Notes under the pieces: generated by a model
What the model was told of the DNA's origin: nothing
The model's database searches: none
Seen by the model: only the letters and a program-made list of their open reading frames with translations
Made by a program: the position numbers and the translations under genes
Assembly: GCF_037042905.1 (NCBI RefSeq)
Contig: NC_087250.1
Coordinates: 27,716,001 to 27,780,000, forward strand
Direction: 5' to 3'
From: Lytechinus pictus
Lineage: Eukaryota
DNA length: 64,000 bases
In this document: piece by piece, positions 21,376 through 64,000 of the stretch
How the letters are laid out: each line of letters starts with the position of its first letter
Position numbering within the stretch: the stretch's first letter is position 1

Positions 21376-21540
21376 CTGTGTAGCGAACCCGTCCGCTACG
21401 GTTTTTAGTTATAATGCAGTAAACGTAGATGGCGCTATAGCATTTGGTGCGTTAGAATTCAATGATCGACTTACGCAACGCACTGCGTAAGGCAGCTCTC
21501 GGAGACTATAAATAGCGGAGTTTCGCGGTGATCTCGTCAC

Positions 21541-21722
21541 AACTGGGCGTTGTGGCGTGTGCCTGCAATCCAAGCTGTGTGGGGAAGTTACAAATTGATG
21601 CAGAGGTTCGAGGTTCGAGCCCTGGTCACGTCTTTCGGATGGTGACGTTAAAGGTCGGTCCCAGACGTAAATAATCATATCTGATTGATACACGTCTGAC
21701 AAAAACTAAAATACACACACAC
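21541..21722 (+). mobile_element. SINE inserted in the 3' LTR (7SL-like head, B-box, Deu/Nin-like core, (CA)n tail)
   Basis: Absent from the 5' LTR. 11-bp TSD GATCTCGTCAC at 21530-21540 and 21723-21733. GGTTCGAGCCC B-box and ACACACAC tail. Confidence 0.85.
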
Positions 21723-23894
21723 GATCTCGTCACTTCGACGCTGGCGGAGGTCGGAGTCGGACGAAGAACCCCCTGCGCTCCACTCCAACTGGGCTGAATC
21801 AAGAAAAGGTTTGGAAATGAACATTGCTCGCTTAATTTCTACTACTGCAAATACAATTCTGGATAATTGGTGACGGTGTTAAAGGTGATAACATGTAAGA
21901 GATGCTGAATGTATAATTAAATTATGACCGTTGTCATAAACCAAATGTAATCATCGTCTCCAACCTGTGTGATCTATGGAATCCCTATTGACTTCTACAG
22001 TATAAGCCTTCCCATAGAGATTATACAGCTCCAATAGAAATCCCCTGTAATTCTATATTTCACCTGTTCACACTACCTCTCAACACTCCACCCCCATATA
22101 TTTTGGGAAAACGGAACACGCCCGGGTCTCTACATAACGCCATACGGAAACCGCTCGCATTAAGGATGGATAGCAATTCATCAACAGATGAAGGTGATAG
22201 AGGCAAGGAACAGGCCGGCCCCCCAGCATCTAGGACCCGATCCAAGACGGAGGGCCGCCACAGTATATTCATGAAGACATGCAGAGGCCCGTCTCATCAG
22301 AACAATGAAAGTGCTTAAAATATCAAAAATCTATCATTTCTTATCCGGTTTCAATGACATTGTCAGTATTTTAATTGTCTCATTTTACTTTTTCTATTCA
22401 AATCATATTATATCCAAGCCTAGAGTACCCCCTCTAAGCTTCCTTTCTTAGGCACGTCAACCCACATGAAATAATAATATTTGTTGACAACGAAACTACA
22501 TAATTTTTATCATGTCATCTCTGCCTTCCAGAAGGTGTACGTTGTTCATTGAATCACATGGATCCTTTTAATTTATACAGTCTTTTATATATCTATATAA
22601 TACACTGAAAAATGAAGAGTTAATGGACGAGGTGTAATGTTTAATACTTAATTATTATATTGCCCCCTTTCCTGTCCAAACGACGGTGTAATATTCGCAA
22701 CAATCACCCTCATGAACATTTGGTATTTGCATACTATACCAGCATGCTGACAATCACCATGTAGAAGCATGCTCATTATAACTGTAACGTTAAATATTTT
22801 TTAAATGATATGTTATTTTTCCTGTTTAACCATCCTTGTGATCCCATACAGAGTGTTGTGCATATGAAGAGTTTAGTTACAAAAGGGGTTAGGTCCACTA
22901 TGGACCATTTCGAGAAAAAACCATGTTTTTTATTCTCACTTAGGTATTGTTAAGTTGGTGGAATGACACTGTATATCACTGAGATGGACACGTGACTGAT
23001 TGAACTCTCAAATAACAAGTTTATTAACAACCACTTAGCAACCATGCGCATGCGTAAACATATATCATAACCAGGGCCGTAGCTGGAGGGGGGGGGGGGG
23101 GGTATGGGGGTGTGTACACCCCCCCCCCCCCCAACATTCATGGCAGTCGGCAAAATCATGTACCAGTTGCCAAAATGGAGGATAGGGGAAAAAGAAAGAG
23201 GGAAAGAAAGGAAGAGAAAAAAGAAAGAAGGAGAGAGGATAGAGAAAGAAAAAGAAAGAAAGAAAGAGAGAGAGAGGGGGAGAAGGGGGGGGGGAGAAAG
23301 TGAGATAGAAAGAAAGAAAGAAAGAAATAATAATAATGATAATAATAGGCATTTATATAGCGCCATCTATCTAGAAATATTCTATTCCGAGGCGCGTTGT
23401 TATTATTATTAGGTAGGCACTTATGAACCAAGTTTGAAAGGAGACTCGTAAAATTACGTCGCTCTCGCCGATGAATATTCATTAGATCGTGGTCGTGCGT
23501 GCTCAATACACACTGAGTACAGCTGGCATGCAGAAAGTTATATGCGAGGAACTTTGGCTCCAGAGACAAGTTGTCAAATAATGTGTGTGTGTGTGTACCA
23601 TCGGCTGGTAGTAGTCCATGCTGTACTTCAAACCGCGCGTCGGAGAGAGTGCATGGCAATTCGGTAAAACGAAGTTTCCGATATAAAGAAATAATATAAC
23701 ACTATGTACAGTACGTTGAGAGGCAAATGTCAGATCAGGGGAGGCAGGAGTACAATGGGCTTTTTTTAAGGGAAGAATAGTGTAGAATAAAAGGTATCAT
23801 ATATAGCCAATTGATCTAGGTGAGGGATTAAGCTTAGTGAACAATGATGACTTTGATGATTAAAGAAAAGAATGAATATATACCTTACCTGAAT

Positions 23895-25490
23895 ATTATG
23901 GTGAAGCAAATTTAAAAGGAGGTGAGGCAAGTTTCAATGGAGGTTTTTAAAAAGAATAAACTGTATTATGGTGAAGCCAATTTAAAAGGAGGTGAGGCAA
24001 ATTTCAATTGGAGGTTTTTTAAAAGAATAAACTGTTCTACAAATTTTAAAGGAGGCGAGGGAAGTTTCAATTGAGGTTTTTAAAAAGAATAAACTGTACT
24101 ACAAATTAGGGTGAAGCCAGTTTAAAAGGAGGTGAGGCAAGTTTCAATGGAGGTTTTTCAAAAGAATAAACTGTACTACAAATTTAAAAGGAGGTGAGGC
24201 AAGTTTCAATGGAGGTTTTTAAAAAGAAACTGTATTATGGTGAAGCCAATTTAAAAGGAGGTGAGGCAAGTTTCAATGGAGGTTTTTAAAAATAATAAAC
24301 TGCACTACAAATTTAAAAGGAGGTGAGGCAAGTTTCAATTGAGGTTTTTCAAAAGAATAAACTGCGTTAAGGTGAAGCCAATTTAAAAGGAGGTGAGGCA
24401 AGTTTCAATGGAGGTTTTTTAAAAGAATAAACTGTACTATAAATTTAAAAGGAGGTGAGGCAAGTTTCAATGGAGGTTTTTTTTTAAAGAATAAACTGTA
24501 TTATGGTGAAGCCAATTTAAAAGGAGGTGAGGCAAGTTTCAATGGAGGTTTTTTTTAAAGAATAAACTGTATTATGGTGAAGCCAATTTAAAAGGAGGTG
24601 AGGCAAGTTTCAATGGAGGTTTTTTTTAAAGAATAAACTGTATTATGGTGAAGCCAATTTAAAAGGAGGTGAGGCAAGTTTCAATGGAGGTTTTTAAAAA
24701 GAATAAACTGTACTATAAATTTAAAAGGAGGTGAGGCAAGTGGAGGTTTTTAAAAAGAATAAACTGTATTATGGTGAAGCCAATTTAAAAGGAGGTGAGG
24801 CAAGTTTCAATGGAGGTTTTTAAAAAGAATAAACTATACTACAAATTTAAAAGGAGGTAAGGCAAGTTTCAATGGAGGTTTTTTGAAAAGAATAAACTGT
24901 ATTATGGTGAAGCCAATTTAAAAGGAGGTGAGGCAAGTTTCAATGGAGGTACTACAAATTATGGTGAAGCCAATTTAAAAGGAGGTGAGGCAAGTTTCAA
25001 TGGAGGTTTTTAAAAAGAATAAACTGTACTAAAAATTTAAAAGGAGGTGAGGCAAGTGGAGGTTTTTAAAAAGAATAAACTGTACTACAAATTTAAAAGG
25101 AGGTGAGGCAAGTTTCAATGGAGTTTTTTTTTTAAAGAATAAACTGTATTATGGTGAAGCCAATTTAAAAGGAGGTGAGGCAAGTTTCAATGGAGGTTTT
25201 TAAAAAGAATAAACTGTACTATAAATTTAAAAGGAGGTGATCGAGGCAAGTTTCAATGGAGGTTTTTTAAAAAGAATAAACTGTACTACAAATTATATGG
25301 TAAAGCCGATTTAAAAGGAGAAGAGGCAAGTTTTAATGGAGGTTTTTAAAAAGAATAAACTGTACTACAAATTATGGTGAAGCCAATTTAAAAGGAGGTG
25401 AGGCAAGTTTCAATGGAGGTTTTTAAAAAGAATAAACTGTACTACAAATTATGGTGAAGCCAATTTAATAGGAGGTGAGGCAAGTTTCAA
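23895..25490 (+). repeat. Satellite array (~55-77 bp variable unit) in the left TIR
   Basis: Unit GGTGAAGCCAATTTAAAAGGAGGTGAGGCAAGTTTCAATGGAGGTTTTTAAAAAGAATAAACTGTA. Confidence 0.95.
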
Positions 25491-25814
25491 TATCTTTAAC
25501 AGTTTAATGTATTGATACATTATATTTCAACATAGGATGGATCATTTGCTAAGTTTTCATTAATGAATGCTCTCCTTGCCATTGTCAAATGGCCATGACC
25601 AAAGGATTTTAGCAACATTTCAGCAAGCTTTACATATGCATGCAAGACCAAAAATTGCTCAAAAGCATGACTTCATGAACAGACACAATACAGATTATGT
25701 TACTTGCCAAAAATTAATGTATCATTATTTATACTCGTACTAATTAAAAAAAAATCATATCATGTTTATTAAGAAGGTTTCAGCACCCCCTCCTCCCCCG
25801 CCCCAAATAAACAC

Positions 25815-27454: not shown

Positions 27455-27808
27455 TTAATGTAATTGTTGTAAAACAGTACTAAATTACTCCATAACAGTA
27501 TCTATTGTAAAAAATATTTGATTTGTATTAGGTCTACTCTGTGATGGTGTAGTTATACCTTGTTTTAATATTTTCATTACAAGTTGAACATTAAACTACA
27601 TCACACCAATGACAAAAGGGGTAGAAGCATAGGTTTGCAACCTTTACTTAAAAGTTAAGCTCTTTCAAGAAAAATTTAATCTTCACTATACAAAATGTGA
27701 ATATGGATTGTTTAACAACTATAAACAAGATTATGTTCTGCCTTCTTGAAATGGTTGCAGGAGGCTTATTCCGGCTTGTGTGGCCAATTTTATCTCCCGA
27801 CAACTTAA

Positions 27809-28562
27809 CCCTAACTAGGCCGGGCTTTTTGGGCTGTTCAGTGGCCGCCGGGGGGGGGGGGGGGTTGATTCCACCCCCCCTCCCCCCGAGACCTCGGTCG
27901 CCGATGGCGCGAGTGCCGCAAAAATTTGCACGCTGGTAGTGTGCGATGTAATCTACAAGGCTGTAATGATAAAATTTTCCAAAATAATGAGATTTTATTT
28001 TACATGAATTAATTATGCTAATTTATGCATAAATCATACTTTTTGTTGTAATTCACTAAATAAAGCTCCTAGAATGCTAATTTTTTTTTAAATTATTCTT
28101 TGTAGCATTCTTAACAATCTCAATTGAAAAAAAAAATTGTTTTGGAATTCAATTTCTTATGTATTTCATTGTTTTTCAACCTTTTGTTTTTCTTTGTTTT
28201 TTTTCACCAGATTTATTGCACAACCTTTTTGAAGCATAATTATGCTAAAATCAATTGATTTCAGCTGTTAAAAGTAAAAATAATCATATCTTTATGACAT
28301 AAGATGAAAAAACTCAATTTACATTGACTTTGTATATAAAATCACGTTTAGGAACAATTTTTGGTCAGACATGCACTTACAAAATGTTGCGTAATTTCAG
28401 AACCGTGTACATGGGGTCGTAAATTTTGTCTCAAAAGATGCGCAAAACTTTTGAAGTATAAACTCTGCAAGTGGTGCGGTCAAAAAAATTTGCGCGGCGG
28501 AATGATCGCAGAAAATGTTGAGGGGGGAGTTCATTCACCCCCCCCCCCCGGCCTGTTTAGGG
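27809..28562. mobile_element. piggyBac-like MITE (TTAA TSD, CCCT..AGGG)
   Basis: TTAA|CCCTAACTAGGCCGG ... CCGGCCTGTTTAGGG|TTAA. A second copy lies at 58803-59575. Confidence 0.88.
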
Positions 28563-30027
28563 TTAAGAATAGTTGGTCTGATCAACTTTAGACTTGGTCT
28601 AAGTGTGTATAATTGAGTAGAGACGATCTGATCAGATTTTGGGGTTAAAAGTCAATGACTCATCAAATACATAATATATCCTGTTCTTGCCGTAACTCAG
28701 TAAAGAATCATGTGTGGGATCAACTTCAAATTCAAAGTTAAGGTAAGGATCTGATTATATTGCAAGATTACAGATATGCAGTCGTTATATAAATTCAAAT
28801 AGTTCATTTTCACATTAACTGTACAGTTGTCAATAGGATGAAATTCAAACTTGGTTCCTGCATGCACATTTAAGGCAGATAATCTCAGTAAATAGTAGTA
28901 GTTCAAGTTCATAGGTCACAGACATCAATATGCATGTATACCCAAAATATCTCATATTCCCATGTCGTTATAGAATCATTTGAGGGTTCTACTTCCAATA
29001 TGGCTTATCTGTGCATAATTATGACTGGTGAAATGTTAGCCCATGAGGTCAAAGTGCATGGTATAACAGTCATGTCCTCAAAAAGCATATTCTTTCATCC
29101 AAGTGATATGTGTGACTACAGAGGTTTTGCATATTTAATGAGCTTGATGAAGACCAAAGCACAAGCCACGAGAGGATTAGGATGAATCTGGCCAATTTGC
29201 TCATTAGCATAGGGACCTGCACTCTGACTGATAACTTTTTAATCTCCTGAATTCTTTGAAAGGATCAATTTGAAAATTACCTCTTGTGTGAGTGAAGATT
29301 TTTAGTCAAATTTCTATTGTCAGCAAGGTCATGTTAAAAATGTAAATATATAATATATTCTTGGTCTAGCAAAGGCAGTGCCATAAATTTTGACTGCATG
29401 TAGTTGAGAATCCATCTAGTTAGTCATAAAACATCAACGGCTAATTGTATCCATTCAACTTAGGGTTTCTTACGATACTTGCTAATGTTAAATCATGGAA
29501 GAATCACCTGTGTAAATAATGATACATTGTTTGTTAGCATTAATCGGCATGAGGCTGATCAATTTCTTTGATAACTATTTGATGCAAGATTATATGACCT
29601 TTGTGTTTTATTCAGTATTTTTAGAATGTCTCATTTCATTTTGAACATAATTTGCGACCATTTTTGCTGCCCACTCAACAGTCTTTGAAGATGTTTGTGC
29701 AAAAACTTGATTAGAATGCATACCGTTATCACACAGTACTTGCCAACTTTTAGTATCTTTTATCATGATCCTAGGCCTGCCAGTACTGAAAATAAACGTA
29801 TTTTAAACTGTATTATAGCGTATATTTTTATTTACTCAAACTGCAGTTGCTTTCCATGATCATGTCCTGGTTTTATAATACTTGCTGTTAACTAATGTAA
29901 TTGTCACTTGTTTTTTCTAACAGCGAGAATATATTGCTATATGTGTCCAGCCACCCCAATACCAACAATAAATACATTGATTTAAAGATTCTCATTGATC
30001 TTGAACAATCACATCCTAAGCTGTAAA

Positions 30028-33000
30028 TTGATTGATTGATTGATTGATTTTATTTGTCAGGCAACTATGAACAAGTACAAGAAAATATGAACAGAATTGT
30101 ATACCTTGACAGGATAACCCATGAAAGCCGAGATGGCTTATTTCCAATGGGGTCCTTACATCAGTAATTGAAGACAATGTACATCTATGAAAAAACACCT
30201 ATAGAAATCTACAAACTACATAAATTAAGTCTAGACCACTAAATTAACACGATAAATTGTAAAACTTAATATATAAAAAGACAAAAGCAAATAAGTTTGC
30301 CATGAAAAACACGCAGTCAACAAAATATGATTAAAATAATTGTAAAACAGGTTGAGTAAACGATCATTACTTCTAAGTTACATATGATAATTATACTAAT
30401 AATCAATTTTTAGGTAGCGGTAAATGCATCGTAACTAATACAAGATTCATGAATCGTAAAACCTAAGATATGAAAAAGTACAAATAAGTTTGACATCAAA
30501 CTTTCACGCAAACAACAAAAGATGATGAAACAATGTAAAACAAGTTGATAAAAAAAAAATCATATCTAAATAGTTATATATAAGACTACAATATTTAACA
30601 TTACAGAGTGGGGACGTTTTTAAAGTGTTGTTTCAATACTCTTTTAAATTGTGAAAAAGTCTTAACCGATTTAACATGATTAGGGAGGGAATTCCAAAAA
30701 TGTATACCTTTATAATAAAATGTGTTACCAATTTGACCTTTTCTCATAGGTACAACAAAGTTAAACAGACTATTTCTTGTTTCATGCCCGTGAATATTAG
30801 ATGACCGTGTAAAATTTTTTGATATGTAATGATATTCGTTTGAATAGAAAATTTTATGAATATGGTGAAGTATAAGTTGTTGCGACCTCAAGTCTATGCG
30901 AAGAAGGCCAGCTTTTTCGATTTCATTCTTCCCAACATGTGTTCTTGGGTGTAAGCAGGTAATAAATCTAACAATCTTATTTTGAATAATTATAAACTTT
31001 TTTTGATCAACCTTTCCAAGACTGCAGTACCATGCTGCATTAGCATAATCAAATAAACACTGTATTAATGAAAAGCTTAAAATGCGTCTGGATTTCGTAT
31101 TCATGCAATTTTGGTACCGGTATAGAAATTTCAAGCGAGCATTAGCTTTTTTGACAATAGAGTCAACCATGGATGTACATGAGAGATCACTATTTAATAT
31201 CAGGCCTAAATACTTCACGGAATTCTGTCTCTTAATTAATTGATTGTTATAGTATATATTGAAATCATCTGTATGCTTAGACTTACCCCGCGAACAAAAC
31301 AAAATACTTTCAGTCTTACCAACATGTAAGCTAAGCTTGTTATCTATCATCCATTTAACACAATTTGATAATTCTAAGCTAAGTTTTTCACCGATCAGCT
31401 TAGGACTTGTATCAGAATAGAGTAAAACACTGTCGTCTGCATATAAAAGTAATTTACTTTCATCAACACAAATACACATATCATTGATATAGCACATAAA
31501 AAGAATGGGACCTAATATGCTCCCCTGTGGAACTCCACACTTTATAGGCATAGAATATGAAAGTACATTTTGCATGGATACCACTTGACGGCGATTGGTC
31601 AAGTAAGACCTAAACCAATTCAAGCATGCTGAATTCAAACCCATCACTTCTAATTTCTTTAAGAGTATTTCATGATTAACCGTATCGAATGCTTTTTGTA
31701 AGTCAAGAAGAACCATGCCAACATAACGGCCTTCGGAAATTTCATTCCTAACAAAATCCAACAAGTGAATTAAACATGTTTCAGTAGAATAACCATTCCT
31801 AAAACCAGACTGAAATTCATAAATGATTTTGTATTCTTTAAAGTATTTCTCAATTTGAGAATACACGCATTTCTCCAAAATTTTCGACACTATGCTTAAC
31901 ACACTAATAGGTCTATAATTGCCAACGTGAGTTTTGTCTTTCTTTTTGTGTAGTGGTGTGACTTTAGCGATTTTCATTTCATCAGGGAAGGTACAAGTTG
32001 AAATAGATAGGTTAATAATGTAAGTTAAAGGTATAAAGACGTTTTTTGCACCATCCTTTAAAAATCTAGCAGGAACCAAGTCAAGTCCGGTACTTTTTGA
32101 TATTTTCAACTTGGATAATTCATCTAATACAAACTTTTCTGTGACAGGAGAAAAATTAAAACAGCCTCTTTGTATACCTTTATTGTCGTATAGTTTTTTC
32201 AAATTAGGACTGTCGGCCCCAAACTCACTTCTGTCCGTAATGGGGAGCTCACAGGCTAATTTATCGGCCACTGTTGTAAAATAATTGTTGAATTCGTTGG
32301 CTATCTTTAGATTATCATGACATAATTCCCCTTCAATATTAATAACACTTTTCTGAATATTTTTTTGTTTGTTTTTTAAACCTAACTCTTTGAGATTCTT
32401 CCATAATTTCCTAGAATCATGTTTATTGTCTTCAATTTGATTTTGGAAAAATTCGTCTTTAGCTTTCCTCACTTTTCTTTGTACCACATTTCGCAATAGT
32501 TTAAATTTCCTTTTGAGTTCTAAATTACCAATATCCTTTTTCATTTTCCTGAAAGCTATATTTCGTTGTCTTATCAAACCAATAATTTCACTGTTCATCC
32601 ATCTTTCTGTTCTTTGCTTAATTCTTACTTGTTTTAGAGGCGCACACTTATCAACTACTGACATGAAAATACTTTTGAAGAGTGACCAAGCAATATTTAC
32701 TTCATTACATTCAAATATAACAGACCAATTGATTTGAGATAAAACGAAATTAAAATCATTTTCACAATAGTTTTTCATACATCGAATGCTTATAGTTCTA
32801 TGTTGCCCGAATACAGGCCTGATAAGTTTCCTTGAACAATACGTTAAAAAGTGATCACTTAAGCCAATTTCAAAAACACCACTTTGACAAATATTTTCTT
32901 CTTTACTACAAATTACATGGTCTATTAATGAAGAAGTGGTAGGTGTAGTTCGGGTGGGTTTCGTTATAAGTTGGCTCAAACCATATAAATTCAAAATATT

Positions 33001-33699
33001 CTTGTATCTTTTGGTCAGTGCTGATTGTTGTAATAGACAAATATTCATGTCCCCTAAAAGTATAACCTCATCATCTTTTGTTAATATGTCCAATATATCA
33101 GGGAGAGAATCAATAAAGTGATTGTCTCTCGGGGGTCTGTAGACTACACCTAAAGTAATAGGCTTTGTATGTGGTAATAGAATGTCGATCCACAATGATT
33201 CAATACCATCAGGTGTAAGATCTTCTCTTAGATTAAATGCAATATCATTTTTAATATAAAGGCAGACCCCACCACCATGGTCGCCTGCACGATCTCGTCT
33301 TAATATAGAATAACCATCGATATAAATTTCTTCATCATTTATGGACGAATTCAACCATGTTTCAGTAATTGCAATTGCTGAAATTCTACTTTCATTGAGA
33401 AGGACGCGTAGTTCAGGAACTTTATATAAGATGGATCTGATATTTAAATGAACGAAATGCAACCCTTTTGCTTTAAATATATTATTAAATGATTTGTATA
33501 AAACAGCATTATCAATTCCAGTAGGTGTGTTAAATTCAGGGATAGGAGGTGCATTAACTGTTGAGGTGGGTTGAACATCAATAAAGGATTGTGTAAAAAT
33601 GGAGTCACAAAATGGCGGCAATGAACAGGTTAAACATATCCAATTCTCATTTGGGTTTTGATTTATCTTGTTAATATTGATCAATAATATCCCTCGCAA
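30028..33699 (-). mobile_element. CR1/L2-group LINE, 5'-truncated, with 3' UTR and (TCAA)n tail
   Basis: Minus-strand ORF2 and 3' UTR 30028-30600, with AATAAA followed by a TCAA-repeat tail. Confidence 0.9.
30601..33699 (-). CDS. LINE ORF2: partial PHD, APE endonuclease, reverse transcriptase
   Basis: Uninterrupted 1032 aa with WICLTC, HLNIRS, ITETWL, GGGVCLY, LGDMN, SDHF, NYRPIS, QSGFR, DLQKAFD, GVPQGSILGP, LYADD and KYLG. The true start is lost. Confidence 0.93.
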   Translation of the reverse strand: MRGILLININKINQNPNENWICLTCSLPPFCDSIFTQSFIDVQPTSTVNAPPIPEFNTPTGIDNAVLYKSFNNIFKAKGLHFVHLNIRSILYKVPELRVLLNESRISAIAITETWLNSSINDEEIYIDGYSILRRDRAGDHGGGVCLYIKNDIAFNLREDLTPDGIESLWIDILLPHTKPITLGVVYRPPRDNHFIDSLPDILDILTKDDEVILLGDMNICLLQQSALTKRYKNILNLYGLSQLITKPTRTTPTTSSLIDHVICSKEENICQSGVFEIGLSDHFLTYCSRKLIRPVFGQHRTISIRCMKNYCENDFNFVLSQINWSVIFECNEVNIAWSLFKSIFMSVVDKCAPLKQVRIKQRTERWMNSEIIGLIRQRNIAFRKMKKDIGNLELKRKFKLLRNVVQRKVRKAKDEFFQNQIEDNKHDSRKLWKNLKELGLKNKQKNIQKSVINIEGELCHDNLKIANEFNNYFTTVADKLACELPITDRSEFGADSPNLKKLYDNKGIQRGCFNFSPVTEKFVLDELSKLKISKSTGLDLVPARFLKDGAKNVFIPLTYIINLSISTCTFPDEMKIAKVTPLHKKKDKTHVGNYRPISVLSIVSKILEKCVYSQIEKYFKEYKIIYEFQSGFRNGYSTETCLIHLLDFVRNEISEGRYVGMVLLDLQKAFDTVNHEILLKKLEVMGLNSACLNWFRSYLTNRRQVVSMQNVLSYSMPIKCGVPQGSILGPILFMCYINDMCICVDESKLLLYADDSVLLYSDTSPKLIGEKLSLELSNCVKWMIDNKLSLHVGKTESILFCSRGKSKHTDDFNIYYNNQLIKRQNSVKYLGLILNSDLSCTSMVDSIVKKANARLKFLYRYQNCMNTKSRRILSFSLIQCLFDYANAAWYCSLGKVDQKKFIIIQNKIVRFITCLHPRTHVGKNEIEKAGLLRIDLRSQQLILHHIHKIFYSNEYHYISKNFTRSSNIHGHETRNSLFNFVVPMRKGQIGNTFYYKGIHFWNSLPNHVKSVKTFSQFKRVLKQHFKNVPTL

Positions 33700-35235
33700 G
33701 TACTTGATTGAATGCAGAAGTTTGGTGAGAGCTTCAACAAATAAGAGAACAAGATTTGGGGTTCACTTAAGCATGCGATGTGTAATATGTAGTTCAACTA
33801 CTTAGCAGTGAGCAAAACACGGATATCAAAGTCTTGTATTTTGTCTTCAACTTTTACAACCTCACATTTTGACAGTATATGAAGAATTTTTTTTTTCGGA
33901 TAAACCAATATTCTAAATATGCGTTTGGAAAACTGAATTACTATTTTGGTTATTTTCTACGAACCTTCCCTGGCAACTTATGATATTTGGGTGGCTGGCC
34001 ACATTTTGTTTTGTTGAGAAAAAATATCAAAGAGTATATGAAAAAAATATTTATGTAAAAAAGCTTGCCTAGCTGTTAGTATTTTTTCTATTGTACTTTG
34101 TCATGTAACTCTGATAGATTTCATTTCGTTACACAAAATGGGGTTCAGTATTCAGAAAAACCATTAACCTTGCCTCAACCACAACAGTACTTGCCAAACT
34201 GGATAAATCAACATTATATCAAGCTGTGTAGAAGAACTTAATGATCATGTAGATACCATTAAGTGCATACATATGTAATGTCTTTCAAGCTGTATGACAT
34301 AGATATTCTTTTCCATCCATCAGCTTCTACTATTTTTTAAAGGTTAGTATTTATTGTCATGTTGGCAAATTGTGAAATAGTTCATGTTGAAATATGTTGT
34401 ATTACCTGTCATGCATTTGTAATATTATTTTTTTAGAATATATTCTGTCATCATTTTCAGTACATAAAAGTTTATTCAATGTATGCCTTTACCAAAGTTG
34501 GCCATAAGCACAGTGGGTACCAACTATCACTGAAGACAACACAACAATTACTCAAAATATATGTATAGCCTTATAAATGTACAAGTGAATAAAATCTACT
34601 ATGACTACATAGCTTTTCTTTGTGCAACACAGTCATATTTCATTTGGATCAATTCAAAATTGAGTGGTGTTTTGGGGGTAATGCTATGGTAACTGCAGTT
34701 CTGTTGTCCTCTGACAGTTGGTGTTGTAATGATGTGATTGGCAGTGTGTGGACGTCATGTTATAAGAGAAAAAAGAACGTTAAAGTGAGAGTGTTGGCTT
34801 TGAAATGGACTCAACCTATGAAAGTTAAAGTTTGTGCTGCAGAAACTGGTGTGGTAGTGGGATGATAATGATGATGAGGAACAGGGCTGGTATTCAATGT
34901 TACTCTTAAAGCCACAATTTTAAGTATATTTTACTCAGTATTTTGCAAAAGTCACACAAAAAACAGAAACTTGCATGTGTTAGTAATCGTACTCAAATGT
35001 CAAAATAATTTTGACACTATAGCGACATACTTTGATGAGTACTTTCACTCAATGAAGGTACTTTGAAAACTCATCTTGTCGAGTATATTTCATTTGACAC
35101 TATAGTGACACATCAAGTGAGTAAATTTGAATAACTCAATCTAATGAGTAACTTAACCCAGTGTAATGAGTATGTTTAAAGTATATTTACTGACTTTTTG
35201 AGTATGTGAGCATATTACACACTTGATTAGTTTTA

Positions 35236-36125
35236 GCGATAATCTGACGATTAACTGCGCTGAGAAAATGAGTAGTATATGACTCTTGTATGTGAGTTTT
35301 GGGGTGTTGAGATCATGCATCCAAGTAATTTTACTCGGATCTCGCGTTAATTGCTTGCGCGCACACGTGATACCGGCCAAAATATGTGCAGAGCATGAAG
35401 ACTTTTCTGGTAAGTTCTACATGTCTTTTTATTTATTTTCCCCCTTTTCTTCTATAATTACTTTTCTTGACAATAATAGCTTAGACCTACATGTATGGGG
35501 CAAACATAAATGCTATTTATGGTGACAACAGGGTGCATTGATCTACATTCTCATCCATCCGAGGCTCACGCCTCTCGGTTTGGGTAACCACACACCAGCC
35601 TGTTGTTGCGCCGCTACCCCGAGGGCAAATAAGTGACATCGTCCATGATTTATGTAATCATGGACGATGTCACTTATTTGCCCTCCTCATAAATGACTCC
35701 AGCAATCGTAGCGGCACACTGGCCTTCACTCCCTTCTGGCCCCGGGGTAGCGGCGCAACAACAGGCTGGTGTGTGGTTACCCAAACCGAGAGGCGTGAGC
35801 CTCGGATGGATGAGAATGAAGATCAATGCACCCTGTTGTCACCATAAATAGCATTTATGTTTGCCCCATACATGTAGGTCTAAGCTATTATTGTCAAGAA
35901 AAGTAATTATAGAAGAAAAGGGGGAAAATAAATAAAAAGACATGTAGAACTTACCAGAAAAGTCTTCATGCTCTGCACATTTGGCCGGTATCACGTGTGC
36001 GCGCAAGCAATTAACGCGAGATCCGAGTAAAATTACTTGGATGCATGATCTCAACACCCCAAAACTCACATACAAGAGTCATATACTACTCATTTTCTCA
36101 GCGCAGTTAATCGTCAGATTATCGC
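35236..36125. mobile_element. Near-perfect palindromic element (~385-bp arms) with probable TTTA TSD
   Basis: 35236-35621 is almost the exact reverse complement of ~35743-36125; the ORF track gives near-identical peptides on opposite strands. TTTA at 35232-35235 and 36126-36129. Confidence 0.85.
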
Positions 36126-37284
36126 TTTACCTGGCTGTGAGTTTTTTCACCCGTTCTGCTATCATACCTTACAAACTTGAAGAAAAACTCATTTGTACGG
36201 ATTGTTTTACATACTTTCACTGACAGGGATACTCAAGAAAAGTAGTTAATAAATAATGTCCTTGAAAAAAAGATCAGGTGTAACAGAAACCCAGATTCTC
36301 GAGTAAAAACACATACGTTACGAATTTTTGCACTTAATTCTTTATGTAAAAAACAATTTTACTCATGGAAAATAGTTCTCGTTTTTTGTGTGTAAAATAC
36401 TTATCCATCTTTGGTATTCAATTGCATTTTTTTTGGGCTAAATATTTAGCTTAAATGTAAGTCAGCCATCTACTAGACTTAAGTCTACATATACAAAAAT
36501 GATACGCACAGAAATACATTCACACATTTGGCACTATTTGGCTCAAAACTTATAACATCACAATGGGTATTAGTATTTACTTCAATTTGGATAAGGTAAA
36601 TTCTGAGATCTGATCTGCATACAAGTTTAAGCATTTTGTTAAGCTAGCCAAATTGCTAAGTAAAATACTTACAAAATCAAAACTTAGAATTTAATAGGCG
36701 GCCGAGGTATTATTTTTTTCCAGAGGACATGTACAGATTTCTTGTTGACAATTAAAGGATGACATGATGATTATTTTGCATAACCTGGCTTATTAAAAAA
36801 AATATTATGTATATTCCATTTCAGTGATAATTGCATTTTTGGGGAGGGGATATTACATATTTGGGGAATGGAAAAGTTCAAAATGAATGCATACTTAACC
36901 TATTTACGCAGGGGGGGGGGGGGGGGCTCTGAGCTCTGCGATTTAAAAAAAAAGTATTTTGCATGTTTTGAGACCAGTTTTGCGAAGCCCGGGTACTGGG
37001 TTCTGAAAATTACCAAACAATTTATAAGTGCATATCAGACAAAAATGGCTCAAAATTGTGATATTTGTGTACCACGTCAATGGAATATGCGTTTTCAACC
37101 AAAATTCATAAATGCCTAATTGTTTTTAGTTTTGTTGAACTAAACTGATTTATTTTATGCTGTTACGAGAGTCCCAGCATCGTTGAAAAAAAAAACAATG
37201 CAATACAAAGGTAAAAAACCCAAGAAATACATTATCAAAGAACACCACAAAGAGTTTCTAAACCAAAAATTAGAACATTTGGAG

Positions 37285-39840
37285 CTTCACCATAATACAG
37301 TTTATTATTTAAAAAATCCTCCATTGAAACTTGCCACGATCACCTCCTTTTAAATTGGCTTCACCGTGATCTGTATGACACTAAATATTCTTTTAAAAAA
37401 CCTCCATTGAAACTTGCCTCACCTCCTTTTAAATTGGCTTCACCATAATTTGTAGTACAGTTTATTCTTTTTAAAAACCGAAACTTGCCTCACCTCCTTT
37501 TAAATTGGCTTCACCATATAATTTGTAGTGCAATTTATTCTTTTTGAAAACCTCCATTGAAACTTGCCTTACCTCCTTTTAAATTGGCTTCACCATAATT
37601 TGTATTACAGTTTATTCTTTTTAAAAACCTCAATTGAAACTTGCCTCAGATCACCTCCTTTTAAATTGGCTTCACCATAATTTGTAGTACAGTTTATTCT
37701 TTTTAAAAACCTTCATTGAAACTTGCCTCACCTCCTTTAAAATTGGCTTCACCATAATTTGTAGTACAGTTTATTCTTAAAAAAAAACCTCCATTGAAAC
37801 TTGCCTCACCTCCTTTTAAATTTGTAGTACAGTTTATTCTTTTTAAAAACCTCCATTGAAACTTGCCTCACCTCCTTTAAAATTGGCTTTACCATAATAC
37901 AGTTTATTCTTTTTTAAAAACCTCCATTGAAACTTGCCACGATCACCTCCTTTTAAATTGGCTTCACCGTGATCTGTATGACACTAAATATTCTTTTAAA
38001 AAACCTCCATTGAAACTTGCCTCACCTCCTTTTAAATTGGCTTCACCATAATTTGTAGTACAGTTTATTCTTTTTAAAAACCGAAACTTGCCTCACCTCC
38101 TTTTAAATTGGCTTCACCATATAATTTGTAGTACAATTTATTCTTTTTGAAAACCTCCATTGAAACTTGCCTTACCTCCTTTTAAATTGGCTTCACCATA
38201 ATTTGTATTACAGTTTATTCTTTTTAAAAACCTCAATTGAAACTTGCCTCAGATCACCTCCTTTTAAATTGGCTTCACCATAATTTGTAGTACAGTTTAT
38301 TCTTTTTAAAAACCTTCATTGAAACTTGCCTCACCTCCTTTAAAATTGGCTTCACCATAATTTGTAGTACAGTTTATTCTTAAAAAAAAACCTCCATTGA
38401 AACTTGCCTCACCTCCTTTTAAATTTGTAGTACAGTTTATTCTTTTTAAAAACCTCCATTGAAACTTGCCTCACCTCCTTTAAAATTGGCTTTACCATAA
38501 TACAGTTTATTCTTTTTTAAAAACCTCCATTGAAACTTGCCTCACCTCCTTTTAAATTTGTAGTACAGTTTATTCTTTTTAAAAACCTCCATTGAAACTT
38601 GCCTCACCTCGTTTTAAATTGGCTTCACCATAATTTGTAATACAGTTTATTCTTTAAAAAAAACCTCAATTGAAACTTGCCTCTCCTCCTTTTAAATTTG
38701 TAGTACAGTTTATTCTTTTTAAAAACCTCCATTGAAACTTGCCTCACCTCCTTTTAAATTGGCTTCACCATAATTTGTAATACAGTTTATTCTTTTTAAA
38801 AACCTCCATTGAATTAACTTGCCACACCTCCTTTTAAATTTGTAGTACAGTTTATTCTTTTTAAAAACCTCCATTGAAACTTGCCTCACCTCCTTTTAAA
38901 TTGGCTTCACCATAATACAGCTTATTCTTTTTTAAAAACCTCCATTGAAACTTGCCTCACCTCCTTTTAAATTGGCTTCACCATAATTTGTAATACAGTT
39001 TATTCTTTTTAAAAACTTCCATTGAAACTTGCCTCACCTCCTTTTAAATTGGCTTCACCATAATTTGTAATACAGCTTATTCTTTTTTAAAAACCTCCAT
39101 TGAAACTTGCCTCACCTCCTTTTAAATTGGCTTCACCATAATTTGTAATACAGTTTATTCTTTTGAAAAACCTCCATTGAAACTTGCCTCACCTCCTTTT
39201 AAATTGGCTTCACCATAATACAGTTTCTTTTTAAAAACCTCCATTGAAACTTGCCTCACCTCCTTTTAAATTTGTAGTACAGTTTATTCTTTTTAAAAAC
39301 CTCCATTGAAACTTGCCTCACCTCCTTTTAAATTGGCTTCACCATAATTTGTAATACAGTTTATTCTTTTTAAAAACCTCCATTGAATTAACTTGCCACA
39401 CCTCCTTTTAAATTTGTAGTACAGTTTATTCTTTTTAAAAACCTCCATTGAAACTTGCCTCACCTCCTTTTAAATTGGCTTCACCATAATACAGCTTATT
39501 CTTTTTTAAAAACCTCCATTGAAACTTGCCTCACCTCCTTTTAAATTGGCTTCACCATAATTTGTAATACAGTTTATTCTTTTGAAAAACCTCCATTGAA
39601 ACTTGCCTCACCTCCTTTTAAATTGGCTTCACCATAATACAGTTTCTTTTTAAAAACCTCCATTGAAACTTGCCTCACCTCCTTTTAAATTTGTAGTACA
39701 GTTTATTCTTTTTAAAAACCTCAATTGAAACTTGCCTCGCCTCCTTTTAAATTGGCTTCACCATAATACAGTTTATTCTTTTTAAAAACCTCCATTGAAA
39801 CTTGCCTCACCTCCTTTTAAATTCGCTTCACCATAATATT
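37285..39840 (-). repeat. Satellite array in the right TIR (inverse of 23895-25490)
   Basis: Unit TACAGTTTATTCTTTTTAAAAACCTCCATTGAAACTTGCCTCACCTCCTTTTAAATTGGCTTCACC. Confidence 0.95.
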
Positions 39841-40459
39841 CAGGTAAGGTATATATTCATTCTTTTTTTTAATCATCAAAGTCATCATTGTTCACTAATT
39901 AGCTTAATCCCTCACCTAGATCAATTGGCTATAATGCCTTTTATTCAACACTATTCTTCCCTTAAAAACACCCCATTGTACTCCTGCCTCCCCTGATCTG
40001 ACATTTGCCTCTCAACGTATTGTACATAGTGTTATATTATCTCTTTATATCTGAAACTTCGTTTTACCGAATTGCCATGCACTCTCTCCGACGCGGTTTG
40101 AAGTACAGCATGGACTACTACCAGCCGATGGTACACACACACACACGTTATTTGACAACGTGTCTCTGAGCTCTGGAGCCAAAGTTCCTCGCATATAACT
40201 TTCTGCATGCCAGCTGTACTCAGTGTGTATTGAACACGCACGACTACGATCTAATGAATATTCATCGGCGAGAGTGACGTAATTTTACGAGTCTCCTTTC
40301 AAACTTGGTTCATAAGTGCCTACCTTATTATTATCACCCCGGCTTTAGCTCGAGCTGCCTTTCAGCGCTCATGCATTCAAGGAATTAATCCTGCCAGGTA
40401 CCCATTCACCTCACCTGGATCGAGTGCAGCACAATGTGGATAAATTCCTTGCTGAAGGA

Positions 40460-56655: not shown

Positions 56656-59600
56656 ATGAATAGCATGATTCAAAGAACAACAAGACTTGTTTCATCTTGT
56701 AGACTTCAACTACAGGTGTTTGCAGCATGTCACAGTCACTCACATACAGCAAGGCATAGTGTGATTCACTTTCCTGACAGTCTAAAAACACATGGAGGAG
56801 AGGCTAATGTTTCGTATACTGGCAGAGTTTTTAAACCGAATCTGTCAGCATTATCACAACATAGATCAGAGTCAGACATTTGTAAGCTCCAAAGAGCTCT
56901 TTGTAGGAATTTGAAACAAAGCTCGTCATTGCTATGTCAGGCGAACCAAGTTAATTGCATAAGTGTCGGTCCAAGGAGACTCAGGGATAGTAGACAGATG
57001 TTGAATAGACCGGTGCACCATCATTTCTCAACAAGAGCTTCATATTCTGCAATGAATGTTTGCCGCAAGAGAAGTTATTACCAGTCTGCAGCTACTAGTG
57101 CCTTCACATGTTGCAGAGTTCAGAGGTATGGATCCAGCGCTATTGGAAATGAGACCGGTGATCCCCTCTCACCTAAGAGCCCACAGTTCAGATGCTACAT
57201 GGATCATCTGAGAAATGAGCACCAGGCCATCTCAGATAGACTGCAGGTTAGTACCATTCTCTTTCCTGCAGTAGTATTGAGAGGAATCTAACATTTTATT
57301 TACCTGTTCAGGGATCTGTTTCATTAAACTTGTTTTAAACAAATCTGCAAAGCTAATGAAGTCCTTCAATGTGATTGGCTGGTAGTAAATTTGTTATTGA
57401 AATGGTTCATTATAATAAGTCTTAATGAAATGGGACCGAGACCCGTTTCCACAAACAGTTGTAAACATTATTGCAACATGCGTACAAACCTTGATTGTGA
57501 TTGGTTGCTGAGCCATGTTTAAATTCAAATTCAAATTATTCAACACTCATCATAAAAACACATTACAAAATAATACAAGTATTACACAAAGGGAGATATA
57601 AGAAATAGAATGACAAACAGAAGGTAGCACTTAATGAGAGTGTCAGAGGTAGCAGAAAGGAGGAGATTCCTTTTATAATTGCTACCCCAACAAAATCCTA
57701 AAGTTGAAAGTTGTAGATGTACATAAAAAAATACTACACATGAGATATAAGATATAGCAGTCATATTTTCCCTTTTATTGTTTTGTTTGTTTTAATAGGG
57801 AGGGGAGCCGTTGTCAGACTCTAAACAGAAGGAGCTCAGGGGATCCATGATGGAGCTTGGTGAGATCCTTGAGAAATGGAACGAACTGATTTCAATGGAA
57901 GAAGAGATCGATAAAATTCAGCATCTTATCCAAGGTAGGTAGTGGTCATGATATAAATGTGATTTTAGAAAAATATGAAAAATAAGAATAAATTTGTGAT
58001 ACATCAGCAGGCATTCTGATTACTAGGAGGAGCCGTAGTGTAGTGGTTCTGACTTTTGCCTTGTAAACAGAGGGTCGTGTGTTCGAATCCCTCCGCAGTC
58101 TGGTGTCATTTGGCAAGGCGTTAATCCACACTTTGCAACTCTCGACCCAGGTGCTAAATGGGTACCCGGTAGGATGTGAAAGTCATTGTAGCTTGTCCAG
58201 TACTGTGTGCGCCTCACAGGCGACTGACTGGAATAGTCCCCAGGGAGTGGAGGATGCGCACACATTGTGCGCGAAATGACTGATTGAATCCGATGACCTG
58301 GGTAATAATATATTTGTAAAGCACGTAGACACGTCGTTCCGATGTATTAAGCACTATATAAAAGCGGATTATTATTGTTATTAACTAAAACTAAAAGTGT
58401 TTTTAGTCAATGCTTCTGTGGAATGCAAGTGTTCATGTCCTCCGGCAGTATCCATGACAGTTTATTTCTAATTTGTCTTTAAAGGAAAATGAAACCTTTG
58501 GAACAAGACAGCTTGTGTGAAAACAGAAAAATCAAGGAGACAGATCAATGAAAGTTTAAGAAAATTGAATGAAAAATAAGAAAGTTATGAGCATTTGCAG
58601 TTTAGATTATTATTGTAATGTAGATCCTCCCATTGGCAATGTGACAAAGATGTGTGATATCACATGTGAACAACTTTCCCATTGTTTCTGTGTATATTTC
58701 ACTTAAAATGTCTCTTTTATCACATCTATCAGTAGATCTATCAATAATATTTTTATAGGAGGGCTTGTAATACAGATTTTCAAAGAATACATTATGGTTT
58801 AACCCTAACTAGGCCGGGCTTTTTTGGCTGTTCTGTGGCCGGGGGGGGGGGGGGGTTGATTCAACCCCCCCCCCTGAGATCTCGGCCGCCGATCGCGCGA
58901 GCACCCCAAATTTTTGCATGCTGGTAGTGTGCGATGTAATCTACAAGGCTGTATGGTAAAATTTCCCAAAATAATGAGATTTTATTTTATATGAATTAAT
59001 TATGCTAATTTATGCATAAATCATACTTTTTGCTCTAATTCACTAAATAAAGCTCCTAGAATGCTAATTTTTGGTAAAAATATTCTTTGCAGCATTCTTA
59101 ACGATGGCAATTGAAAAAAACTTCGGTTTGGAAATCAATTTCTTTTGTATTTTATTGTTTTATGAATTTCATATGTATTTCTTTGTTTTCAACCTTTTGT
59201 TTTTCTTTGTTTTTTTCACCAGATTTATTGCACAACCTTTTTGAAGCATAATTATACTAAAATCAATTGCTTTCAGCTGTTTAAAGTAAAAATAATCATA
59301 TCTTTATGAATAAGATGAGAAAACTCAATTTGCATTGACTTTGTACACAAAATCACGTTTTGGAACAATTTTTGGTCTGACATGCACTTACAAAATGTTG
59401 CGTGATTTCGGAACCGCGTACCTGGGCGTCGTAAATTTGGTCTCAAAAGATGCGCAAGACTTAAAAGTATAAACTCTGTTAGTGGCGCGGTCAAAAAATT
59501 TCACGCGGCGGAATGATCGCAGAAAATGTTGAGGGGGGGGGGGTTGATTCAACCCCCCCCCCGGCCATTTTAGGGTTAAGTGTTTGTATCACCATAAGAA

Positions 59601-62600
59601 GGAGCAAAAAGAGAGATTTAAGGGTATTTTACAGTCCATCAAAGGGAAAGTTGTTCACATGTGACATCACACATATCTGTCGCATTGCCAATTGGAGGAT
59701 CTCCATAGCATTAGTGATAGCGATATTCAACTGCTCATAACTTTCTCATTATTTGTCCGATTTTTCTCAAACTTTCTTTGATCTTATCGTTTGATTTTTC
59801 TCTTTCCACTCAAGCCCACTTAAGTTCCTTGGGTTTCATTTCTCTTTAAAACTAATTGTCAAATTGCAAACTTGTATATTATTATTTGGTCTACCATCAG
59901 TTTGTCCACTCACCACAAGGTCTTCTTTCATTTAGTCTAATGCCATTCTGTCTAATAACCAGTTGGTCCAATAGCCATTTAGTAATTATACCATTTGGTC
60001 TAATTGGACTAAGTGTTAAATTGTGCAAAGTGAATGAAAATAGTATGGATATTAGACCAACTGGTTATGAGACGAAATGGCCATAGATGAAATGGTGATT
60101 AGGCGAAGTGATGATTGGACTATTTTGGGTTAATGGACCAAATGGATGTTAGACAAAATGTTGATGGATGGAATGGCATTAGACTAAATAAAAGTAGACC
60201 ATGTGGTGAGTGGACGAGTTGGCAAATACCATAATAGTATTAACTTTTATGCAACGGGGCACTGATGTTCTTTGAGACCATTTTCTCCTAATTGATTGGA
60301 AGTTTCATGAAGATTGTATAATGTGCAGGTCTCATGCTTGAATGAACCCTGAATTCCTTTTATTCTGTTAATCATTAGATGGTCATGATAAAGAGATGCA
60401 GGATCTAGCTCTATCTGAGAAGGATCAACTCCAGGACAGGATTGAAGATTTATCACAAGTGGTAAGACCAAGAAAATCTCAATAGGCTCATTTTTTTCTC
60501 AGGTATCGTTTTTTTGTGATGAGCTGTGTGAAGGTATGTGACTATATATATTTTTTTTCTGGTTGCTTTTCTTTAAGCCATATATTACATAATATAACAT
60601 AATAATTTCTGTAAAATTCAAATTTTCTTTCTTCATTGAGTTGTAGAGCAGTTTTTTAGCTGAACCAGACTATGCTCCACTGTTTTTACCACGTGTGATC
60701 GATAAAAAATGAAATAAATGAATATATTTCCTTTGGTTTGAAGGAAAATTGTTCACATGAATTTATTTTGGATGAAAATAGTCCATTTGGATGATTTTTT
60801 TAGTAATCTATGCCCATTGTGGATTATGGTAAAATATTACATTTTGCTTTGATGTACAATATATGATTTTTTGCATCATTTTTCATTACATAATTCTGAT
60901 CTGATTTGGCAGATGCTAATTATCATTTAATGTAGTCATTCTTATTGTCATACAATTCAAATGCTGTTTCAAGGGAGAGGGCCAACAGTACACAAGGCAT
61001 TGATAGGCTGCACGTATTCAGACCCTTATTTACTGGAGTGAAGAGTTTGCACCACAGACGTGGGGCCAGTTTCATAAAGAGTTACAACTGTTGTAACTTT
61101 GCCATTATGGCAACTTCCATGGTAACCTTGATTTTGATTGACTGTTGAGCCCTGTTACCATGGTAGTTGCCATTATGGCAAAGTTACTGCAGTTGTAACT
61201 CTTTATGAAACAGGCCCCAGCATTTAATCTTGTCTGATCCATTAAAAGTGTCCTAGACGCGGTAACACAAATCTTTCATTTGATCGTTGAACCGATTTTC
61301 ATGCTTTATTATGTATTATGTTGTGATCATTATAACAGCAATCAAGCCAGCATATATATTGCATACTCTGCGCTATGCCATTTGCTCTGATGAGGATTGC
61401 TCTGCTCTAAATTGCACATACTAATTGAATAACCATCTTCAACCCTGGGTTTAACACTATACCCTATCCAACATACATGTATAACCCTTTATCTTAGATA
61501 AAATTAACCCCTGAGTAATTGTCGCAGGAGCAAATGTCGTGTCACTGCAAATCAAGCCATAAATATGATCATGTACATTTAACCGGTGATCAAGTTAGCA
61601 AATCTGGGCTCCGTTGCATAAAAGTTACCATCATGGTAACTTTACCTTCCAATGGTAACTTGCATGTAATCCTTGATTTTGATTGGTTGTTGGTCATTGT
61701 TACCATGGTAGTTACCACTGGATGACAAAGATACCATAATAATAATTTTTATGCAACGGGGTCCCAGTGTCTGATCAAACCATAAGGTTTGTGTGACAGT
61801 CAATTCCATCTCATTTCTTTTGTCTTTCCTCTATAGTTGGTTGACCTTCTAATGTCCTCCGAAGAGACTAATGATAATGATGTCATAATGGAGTTTTCAG
61901 CAGGTGTGGGAGGTCAAGAAGCTATGCTGTTTGCCTCTGATATGTTTGACATGTATCAACGATATGCAGATTACAGACGTTGGTCCTTTACAATCCTTGA
62001 GTACTTTACCTCAGATATAGGTTAGTAAAAGTCGTATTGTTTGGAACTGGAAAAATGTTGATGAAACGCTCCCCTGTGATAAAGGAGTCTTTGTTATGTA
62101 TGAGTAGCATGATCATCATGGTATGTTATTTTGAGACGATAGCTCTTTTCTGTCCTTGATATTTTCATCTGGTATCATATTGCAAAGCATGTTCAGATCT
62201 TTTCGAACTAATTGACTGATTGCAAACAAAATTGCTAAATGGACTGACTAATCAAGACCAATGTTACATGCGCATTTTGTTCAACATACTAACCAGGAAC
62301 CAATCAGAAGTGTTCTTTTATATTTACAGGTACTTTTTTTTCTTTTGATCCCCTTTCCTTTCTCTCTCCATATATCTCTTGATCCTGGCAATATGTACGA
62401 ATGTAGTCTTGGAAGTTTTAATTATACCTAAGATCAATAGTATACAGTATACAGGATATGTTTAAACATTGTACCGTAAAGTGTAATTAATGAAATGTAT
62501 ACTTGTTTTTGTAGTTGTGTAATTCCCATTCATTTCAGTTTGTTAACTAATGTGGATAATTTAAATTAATACCATTTATCTACATGTATCGATCTATTCA

Positions 62601-62869
62601 TCTATCAATGCCTGATCTTTATCTGGATAAAGCAGTTTCTATTACCGAAGAGACCACCCTGTCTAAAAAAATAGATAAATCAGTTACTTCAATTTTTTTT
62701 CCTAGGTGGATTAAGGCATGCTACCGTTAGTATCACCGGTGATCAAGCTTATCGTCTTCTAAGACAGGAGGCTGGCGTCCATCGTGTTCAGAGGGTACCA
62801 AAGACAGAGAGACAAGGGCGTATACATACAAGCACCATGTCAATAGCGGTACTTCCACAACCTAAAGAG
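56656..62869 (+). CDS. MTRF1L: Mitochondrial peptide chain release factor 1-like, 5' part; exons 56656-57246, 57799-57934, 60379-60461, 61837-62020, 62706-62869
   Basis: GT-AG introns with consistent phases (0,1,0,1,0). Motifs [26 protein letters not shown] and [32 protein letters not shown] (PxT motif of RF1). R/S-rich N-terminal extension. The catalytic GGQ exon lies beyond the window. Confidence 0.92.
58026..58380 (+). mobile_element. tRNA-derived SINE in an intron
   Basis: A-box TAGTGTAGTGG, B-box GTTCGAATCC, central GACCCAGGTG..AATGGGTACC, and a tail ...CTATATAAAAGCGGATTATTATT. Confidence 0.85.
58483..59845. mobile_element. Kolobok-like MITE containing a nested piggyBac-like MITE (58803-59575)
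   Basis: TTAA|AGGAAAATGAAACC ... GGTTTCATTTCTCT|TTAA. Inner element TTAA|CCCTAACTAGGCCGG ... CCGGCCATTTTAGGG|TTAA. Confidence 0.85.
61061..61219. mobile_element. Short (~160 bp) palindromic MITE; relatives at ~8462-8622, 57310-57437 and 61605-61766
   Basis: TGGGGCCAGTTTCATAAAGAGTTACAACTG ... CAGTTGTAACTCTTTATGAAACAGGCCCCA, with a central GATTG(G/A)CTG motif shared by the relatives. Confidence 0.8.
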
Positions 62870-64000
62870 GTATAAACCAAGGGCGTATACATACTATTTC
62901 CATGTCTGTAGTGGCACTACCACAACATAAAGAGGTACAAAAACAAGGGCGTATATAAACAAGTACCATGTCAATAGCGGTACTACCACAACCCAAATAG
63001 GTATAAACCAAAGGCGTATACATACTAGTACCATGTCAGTAGCGGTACTACCACAACCCAAAGAGGTATAAACCAAAGGCGTATACATACAAGCACCATG
63101 TCTATAGCGGTACTACCACAACCCAAAGAGGTATAAACCAAAGGCGTATACATACTAGTACCATGTCAGTAGCGGTAATACCACAACCTAAAGAGATATA
63201 AACCAAGGGCGTATACATACTAGTACCATGTCAATAGCGGTACTACCACAACCCAAAGAGGTATAAACCAAAGGCGTATACATACTAGTACCATGTCAAT
63301 AGCGGTACTACCACAACCTAAAGAGATATAAACCAAGGGCGTATACATACAAGTACCATGTCAATAGCGGTACTACCACAACCCAAAGAGGTATAAACCA
63401 AAGGCGTATAAATACAATACCATGTCAATAGCGGTACTACCACAACCTAAAGAGATATAAACCAAGGGCGTATACATACTAGTACCATGTCAATAGCGGT
63501 ACTACCACAACCCAAAGAGGTATAAACCAAAGGCGTATAAATACCAGTACCATGTCAATAACGGTACTACCACAACCTAAAGAGATATAAACCAAGGGGG
63601 TATACATACTTGTACTATGTCAATAGCGGTACTACCACAACCCAAAGAGATATAAACCAAGGGCGTATACATACTAGTACCATGTCGATAGCGGTACTAC
63701 CACAACCCAAAGAGGTATAAACCAAAGGCGTATAAATACAAGCACCATGTCAATAGCGGTACTACCACAACCCAAAGAGGTATAAACCAAAGGCGTATAT
63801 ATACAAGCACCATGTCTATAGCGGTACTACCACAACCCAAAGAGATATAAACCAAGGGCGTATACATACTAGTACCATGTCAATAGCGGTACTACCACAA
63901 CCCAAAGAGGTATTAACCAAAGGCGTATACATACTAGTACCATGTCTGTAGCGGTACTACCACAACCTAAAGAGATATAAACCAAGGGTGTATACATACA
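62813..64000 (+). repeat. 65-bp minisatellite (at least 18 copies) derived from the exon 3' end plus splice donor
   Basis: Unit CAAGGGCGTATACATACTAGTACCATGTCAATAGCGGTACTACCACAACCCAAAGAGGTATAAAC. The first unit is the coding exon end. Confidence 0.95.

Follow-up and report, generated by a model that had tools for sequence, protein, structure and literature searches.

Minisatellites that straddle an exon-intron boundary have been described in several human genes and in amphioxus. For intron 7 of human F7, which carries a 37-bp VNTR, the accessible text of Borensztajn et al. 2006 reports 50 constructs in which only the most upstream donor was chosen (PMC1557585). The same source, in the parts available, describes LMNB2 (100 bp x 10-15) and PDGF intron 4 (81 bp x 16-18), as well as human 6-16 with 25 pseudo-sites and CBS intron 13 with 15-20 repeats, all four of which have the same layout (PMC1557585). 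In amphioxus, the so-called mirages occur in Adh3, the globins BflGb6 and BflGb9, TnC and PGBD5; according to the available excerpts, they leave splicing unaffected, and in Adh3 and the globins only or mainly the first donor is used (PMC3087553, PMC3902484). Our literature search, with most subscription journals outside its coverage, returned lancelet as the only non-human case and no echinoderm paper, and it found no paper on the CBS VNTR or on a UPF3A VNTR; PMC10078293 deals, in its accessible part, with other mechanisms. Here we describe an array in the sea urchin Lytechinus pictus that joins the known exon/intron-boundary minisatellites, such as human F7 intron 7 and the amphioxus mirages.

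The array lies at the end of the fifth coding exon of a gene in the window, i.e. the whole 64,000-nucleotide stretch of DNA analysed here. The coding exons in the window are:

56656..57246, plus strand: coding exon 1 of MTRF1L (mtRF1a), 197 codons, with a long N-terminal extension (P0125 identity, tblastn)
57799..57934, plus strand: coding exon 2 (AG/GT ends, P0125 identity)
60379..60461, plus strand: coding exon 3 (AG/GT ends, P0125 identity)
61837..62020, plus strand: coding exon 4, PCRF domain (Pfam PCRF, E 2.2e-17; exon 4-5 junction reads)
62706..62869, plus strand: coding exon 5, 164 nt long and carrying PxT (PKT), the motif for codon recognition (Pfam PCRF, E 2.7e-19; RNA depth)

Exons 1-5 (56656-62869) join into 386 stop-free codons, which are identical to the first 386 amino acids of P0125, a Lytechinus pictus RefSeq protein of 545 amino acids that continues with IDLKLDPKDL after exon 5. 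Judged by its sequence, the host gene is that of the mitochondrial release factor mtRF1a (MTRF1L). The predicted protein combines PCRF (PF03462) and RF-1 (PF00472) domains with the PxT motif and a GGQ motif at residue 407, the latter taken from P0125 because its exon lies beyond the window, and the best PDB match of exon 5 among 41 matched sequences is mtRF1a (7nqh_BL, E 4.5e-21). Best PDB match, both motifs and both Pfam domains are thus those of mtRF1a/MTRF1L, from which the urchin protein differs by its length of 545 amino acids and its long N-terminal extension.

Without mtRF1a, human cells still grow but retain almost no complex I and IV activity, as the accessible part of PMC9613700 reports, so the function of the gene is important. 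The initial annotation spoke of an essential gene. For the copy in the window this description is weakened: a 12-protein cluster contains five L. pictus accession groups of the current annotation, with differing sequences and on one 28.5-Mb record, so that the window's copy need not be indispensable. Several MTRF1L copies thus appear to exist in L. pictus, whereas L. variegatus has one listed protein in the same cluster. P0001, P0121 and P0123-P0128 suggest about five near-identical loci, some of which may be uncollapsed haplotypes, and the multiplicity could stem either from such haplotypes or from a housekeeping gene that has recently expanded in tandem; we found no paper on duplications in this assembly. 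S. purpuratus likewise has two differing RefSeq proteins. P0131, a RefSeq model of a lower accession series, diverges from the rest of the family shortly ahead of GGQ and stops after 440 amino acids, and we read it as a broken copy or an assembly error.

The features of the array and its donors are:

62813..64000, plus strand: 65-nt minisatellite, 57 nt of exon end and 8 nt of intron start (TRF, unit table)
62867..62875, plus strand: authentic 5' splice site GAG/GTATAA, cut after 62869 (RNA ends, U1 duplex)
62878..62943, plus strand: unit 2, the diverged edge unit with the first decoy donor, cut after 62934
63074..63592, plus strand: two-unit higher-order repeat of about 130 nt with alternating GT and AT donors, units 5-12 (lag test)

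Tandem Repeats Finder (TRF) delimits the array at 62813-63999, with a period of 65, 18.3 copies, 90% matches and a score of 1896, far above chance. It comprises 18 full units and one partial unit and extends past the window edge. Unit 1 (62813-62877) is the exon 5 end itself, i.e. the last 57 nt of the exon, followed by 8 intron bases, and 17 full copies are therefore intronic. The array is real, and the initial annotation, which had counted at least 18 repeats, described it accurately; at least 17 copies follow unit 1 in the intron. Units vary at 23 of the 65 columns. Compared with the array consensus, unit 2 has 11 differences and each remaining unit 1-5, so that this edge unit escapes the homogenisation of the array, as edge units do in mirages; the comparison refers to the 5' edge, the 3' edge being beyond the window. 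A higher-order structure is superimposed on this variation: in units 3-18, neighbouring units (lag 1) differ on average by 5.4, and units two apart (lag 2) by 4.14 (permutation with 20000 shuffles, p = 0.019). This agrees with the frequent alternation as a 130-bp pair noted initially, with strict GT/AT alternation limited to units 5-12. The rest of the window contains no copies of the unit, and the other nine exon edges carry no arrays.

The donor has retained GT in 10 of the 17 complete units within the intron and reads AT in seven. Exact copies of GAG/GTATAA occur in seven units (4, 5, 7, 9, 11, 14 and 15), in line with the initial statement that many units keep the true donor sequence. The other three GT donors are GAG/GTACAA in unit 2, TAG/GTATAA in unit 3 and GAG/GTATTA in unit 17, while GAG/ATATAA is found in units 6, 8, 10, 12, 13, 16 and 18; the AT donors reported near 63196, 63326, 63455 and 63585 are exact at all four positions. 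The U1 duplex energy of the true donor is -5.8; the four GT decoys for which it was calculated range from -5.6 to -5.8, and an AT unit has -0.6. The true exon 5 donor is the weakest of the gene's five donors in the window (-5.8 vs -8.0 to -11.9).

An in-frame TAA lies just inside the intron, at 62873-62875. Reading past 62869 gives GTA TAA and ends at V387, so use of a downstream donor would, as computed for the first three decoys, yield a product of 387 amino acids without GGQ. This agrees with the expectation that such donors truncate the protein before GGQ at residue 407. Nonsense-mediated decay (NMD) acts on premature stops that lie more than 50-55 nt upstream of a junction. The TAA is 59 nt from the unit 2 donor and 125 nt from the unit 3 donor, a distance at which decoy use would be expected to lead to alternative splicing coupled to NMD.

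Donor use was assessed with three RNA runs (X21, X22 and X23, in this order below), which were aligned together with the DNA run X9, making four of 24 listed runs, to 61806-62945, covering exon 4, exon 5 and units 1-2. About 6 in 100 of each RNA run were sampled, which gave about 95 RNA reads at the exon 5 end. Donors 3 and later were tested indirectly, by read-through of unit 2 and by the letter at 62854; because any transcript from a downstream donor must include unit 2, its read-through is informative for all decoys. The exon 4-5 junction is crossed by 13, 43 and 18 reads. Mean RNA depth is 29, 53.5 and 13.8 at 62832-62869 and only 0, 0.21 and 0.42 at 62870-62907 (0, 8 and 16 bases in total), and it is 0 in all three runs at 62908-62945, the bin with the unit 2 donor. 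Among the loose ends listed, those at 62869 belong to X22, where 39 continue into exon 6. Since P0125 continues with IDLKLDPKDL and these ends enter that exon, 62869 is the real donor.

None of the about 95 reads from the three runs, sampled at steady state with NMD not inhibited, used or reached a decoy donor. The 95% bound on decoy use is 3.1% (0/95), or 8% if up to three intron-entering reads are counted. At steady state, the first donor is used, in reads that pool gene copies and represent other alleles. One point of the initial annotation holds up here: splicing selects the first of many nearly equivalent donors, as the closely similar U1 energies and the stop of RNA depth at 62869 indicate.

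Letters that distinguish exon from array support this assignment. The array-type A at 62854 is present in 17 of 17 intronic units and in none of 26 X21 and 55 X22 reads. In X23 it occurs in 13 of 14 reads, as does a T at 62848. Because none of the 18 units has this T and X23 shows no rise in depth at that place, we read its A at 62854 as an exon allele. The reads combine all gene copies, and the animals sampled for RNA, which carry other alleles or copies, differ from the window haplotype: at 61998, the window's letter appears in 0 of 24, 0 of 60 and 10 of 21 reads, and at 61870 it is expressed in 9 of 23, 4 of 32 and 6 of 26. RNA coverage of unique intron sequence is near zero, so these reads do not establish that the array is present in the RNA animals.

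The array also occurs in a relative. X9 comes from organism B, is DNA by the tool's guess, and has an exon-4 contig that differs from the window at 12 of 180 letters. Its 224-nt contig, at a depth of 102.7, covers 62846-62941 and then returns to 62820; organism B thus has a head-to-tail array at the same exon end, which answers positively the check in related species that had been suggested. The letters of this contig agree with the window's array majority at five of the six positions listed, and array-type letters are present at 62833 and 62854 in both organism B contigs that cover these sites. Between the window's exon and the array consensus there are five differences, four of them at third positions. 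This suggests that the array is older than the species split and may retain ancestral letters, the exon having taken silent changes.

Within the window's array, the donor letters show no sign of selection. The initial annotation had considered that the GT-to-AT variants may be selected, a proposal that we reject. GT-to-AT is one of eight columns with a variant in at least three units (P = 0.23 that one of eight hits GT), is found no more often than the other variants that units share, and is carried along with the two-unit repeat. Moreover, the four nearest decoys (units 2-5) all keep GT (P = 0.088); as inactivation would matter most in these units, the trend runs opposite to selection for AT. 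Donor columns vary like other columns within the array, an array which organism B also has. We likewise rejected coding constraint or use of the units as alternative exons, since, where the units derive from the exon, 7 of their 23 changes are synonymous and the expected share is 23% (P = 0.28). The AG/GT of the units is unlikely to serve recursive splicing or as a new acceptor, as the preceding 20 nt contain 2-4 T, compared with 12-14 at the four true acceptors. As to intronic polyadenylation signals, the array (62870-64000) contains no AATAAA or ATTAAA, and 20 TATAAA are present.

We consider it most likely that the array is a neutral, tolerated minisatellite with a seed straddling the exon 5/intron 5 boundary, that splicing is committed to the first donor and that leaks are degraded by NMD; commitment by order, decay of leaks and neutrality are what we infer beyond the observations. 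A 65-nt segment would have undergone tandem duplication and further amplification; at some point blocks of two units would have been copied, spreading a single GT-to-AT change. The repeat pattern is directly visible, and slippage or unequal exchange presumably produced it. The expansion would have preceded the split from organism B, whose head-to-tail junction is observed and would then be shared by ancestry. By analogy with F7, the spliceosome may settle on the donor farthest upstream, the earliest to be transcribed and the sole one in a normal exon context. Any transcript leaking to a decoy would carry the TAA at 62873 and probably be degraded by NMD, so that the array would cost little and drift. 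As minisatellites are abundant in the window (six arrays, 6355 of 64000 bases), a seed that falls on a junction would require no special cause. Against neutrality, persistence in two species is also compatible with a function.

The decoys could also be silent owing to the in-frame stop rather than to their order, by suppression of latent 5' sites, in which case heat shock would activate them. Every decoy does lie downstream of that stop, the TAA at 62873. The accessible parts of two studies report that latent donors preceded by a stop are kept silent and that heat shock activates them (PMC1524910, PMC3510495). However, the fifth and sixth pseudo-sites of F7 bring no stop and are unused nonetheless, according to the available text on that gene (PMC1557585). 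The present evidence does not discriminate donor order from stop, and we give suppression by the stop a small chance.

Regulated unproductive splicing, which the initial annotation had put forward as tuning of expression by the array, has a slightly smaller chance in our estimate. Decoys would divert transcripts to NMD and thereby tune the level of mtRF1a, with array length or GT/AT content setting the rate. The decoys match the weak true donor in strength, any decoy use would leave at least 59 nt between the stop and the new junction downstream of it, organism B has kept the array, and NMD would conceal the products. Nevertheless, 0 of about 95 reads lie at a decoy donor, with NMD not inhibited, and the donor letters are without sign of selection. 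In a related and similarly improbable reading, the array behind an unusually weak donor in two species would be a latent splicing rheostat. If so, decoys would capture splicing under stress or at stages with weak NMD and lower mtRF1a and hence mitochondrial translation, and array length and GT/AT content would set the gain.

Least likely of all is that the assembly is in error here or that this gene copy is dead and its array immaterial: the five accession groups on the 28.5-Mb record could include uncollapsed haplotypes, none of 24 listed runs contains half of the window's words and none with the same-species label is marked DNA, and none of X21-X23 matches the window haplotype throughout, but the units differ at 23 of 65 columns and show higher-order structure, an independent DNA run of organism B contains the head-to-tail array, the five exons are stop-free, RefSeq models a full 545-amino-acid protein, and the window letters at 61870 and 61998 are expressed.

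Having set these alternatives against the neutral minisatellite with first-donor commitment, we note several other elements of the window. A 2.1-kb inverted pair (23399-25491 and 38159-40337), 89% identical and mostly composed of a 62-77-nt minisatellite, may represent either a foldback-like element or a further junction repeat; donor-like minus-strand sequence near 23890 adjoins the array in it, and the pair encloses a non-LTR ORF. An LTR retrotransposon at 15945-22262 has 540-nt direct repeats that are 98% alike, reverse transcriptase (RT), RNase H and integrase domains of pol, and ORFs in several frames. An open 1053-amino-acid non-LTR retrotransposon ORF with endonuclease and RT domains is located at 30601-33762 on the minus strand. 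An uninterrupted 562-amino-acid ORF at 6259-7947 on the plus strand contains a B-box zinc finger (E 3.5e-5) and is TRIM-like by our reading. Within the gene, intron 4 carries a high-copy repeat fragment at 62230-62325, with RNA depth above 100 on both strands and X9 contig depth up to 34653. Intron 2 holds a MITE-like 0.8-kb element at 58799-59580, with an 87% copy upstream at 27805-28567. A palindromic element of 0.9 kb (92%) at 35235-36126 is also MITE-like.

The likeness of the urchin array to the described class is close. Its first monomer spans the authentic boundary, the donor is reiterated head-to-tail with GT in 10 of 17 units, the edge unit is diverged, and at steady state the mature mRNA is spliced solely or chiefly from the first donor. 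The gene, whose weak donor faces at least 10 decoys of equal strength, is a further natural example that fits first-come donor choice, and the array could be used in embryos to test donor order against stop-codon suppression and NMD.

As far as the accessible part of the F7 study goes, both arrays place the first monomer over the exon-intron boundary, reiterate the donor in the intron and use the most upstream donor (PMC1557585). However, the F7 unit is mostly intronic (4 exonic and 33 intronic nt, 5-9 copies), whereas the urchin unit is mostly exonic (57 and 8 nt) and is present in at least 18 copies. Unlike F7, as far as described, the urchin array has 7 of 17 donors inactivated, a two-unit higher-order repeat and an invertebrate host. 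The competence of decoys was tested by mutation in F7, in the text available; in the urchin, the decoys equal the true donor in U1 pairing. LMNB2 and PDGF resemble the urchin array in layout, unit size, copy number and use of the authentic donor only, whereas 6-16 and CBS also use two pseudo-sites, in contrast to none at about 95 reads in the urchin; both comparisons refer to what the accessible text states (PMC1557585).

The amphioxus mirages, as portrayed in the available excerpts, share with the urchin array the tandem copies of an exon-intron boundary and an invertebrate deuterostome host (PMC3087553, PMC3902484). In the same excerpts, many but not all mirage units retain the splice signal and edge units escape homogenisation, as in the urchin. 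Unlike the mirages as described there, the urchin array resides in an echinoderm and has been found in a second species. Its presence in two species and the retention of exon letters that look ancestral are what it adds to the known class.
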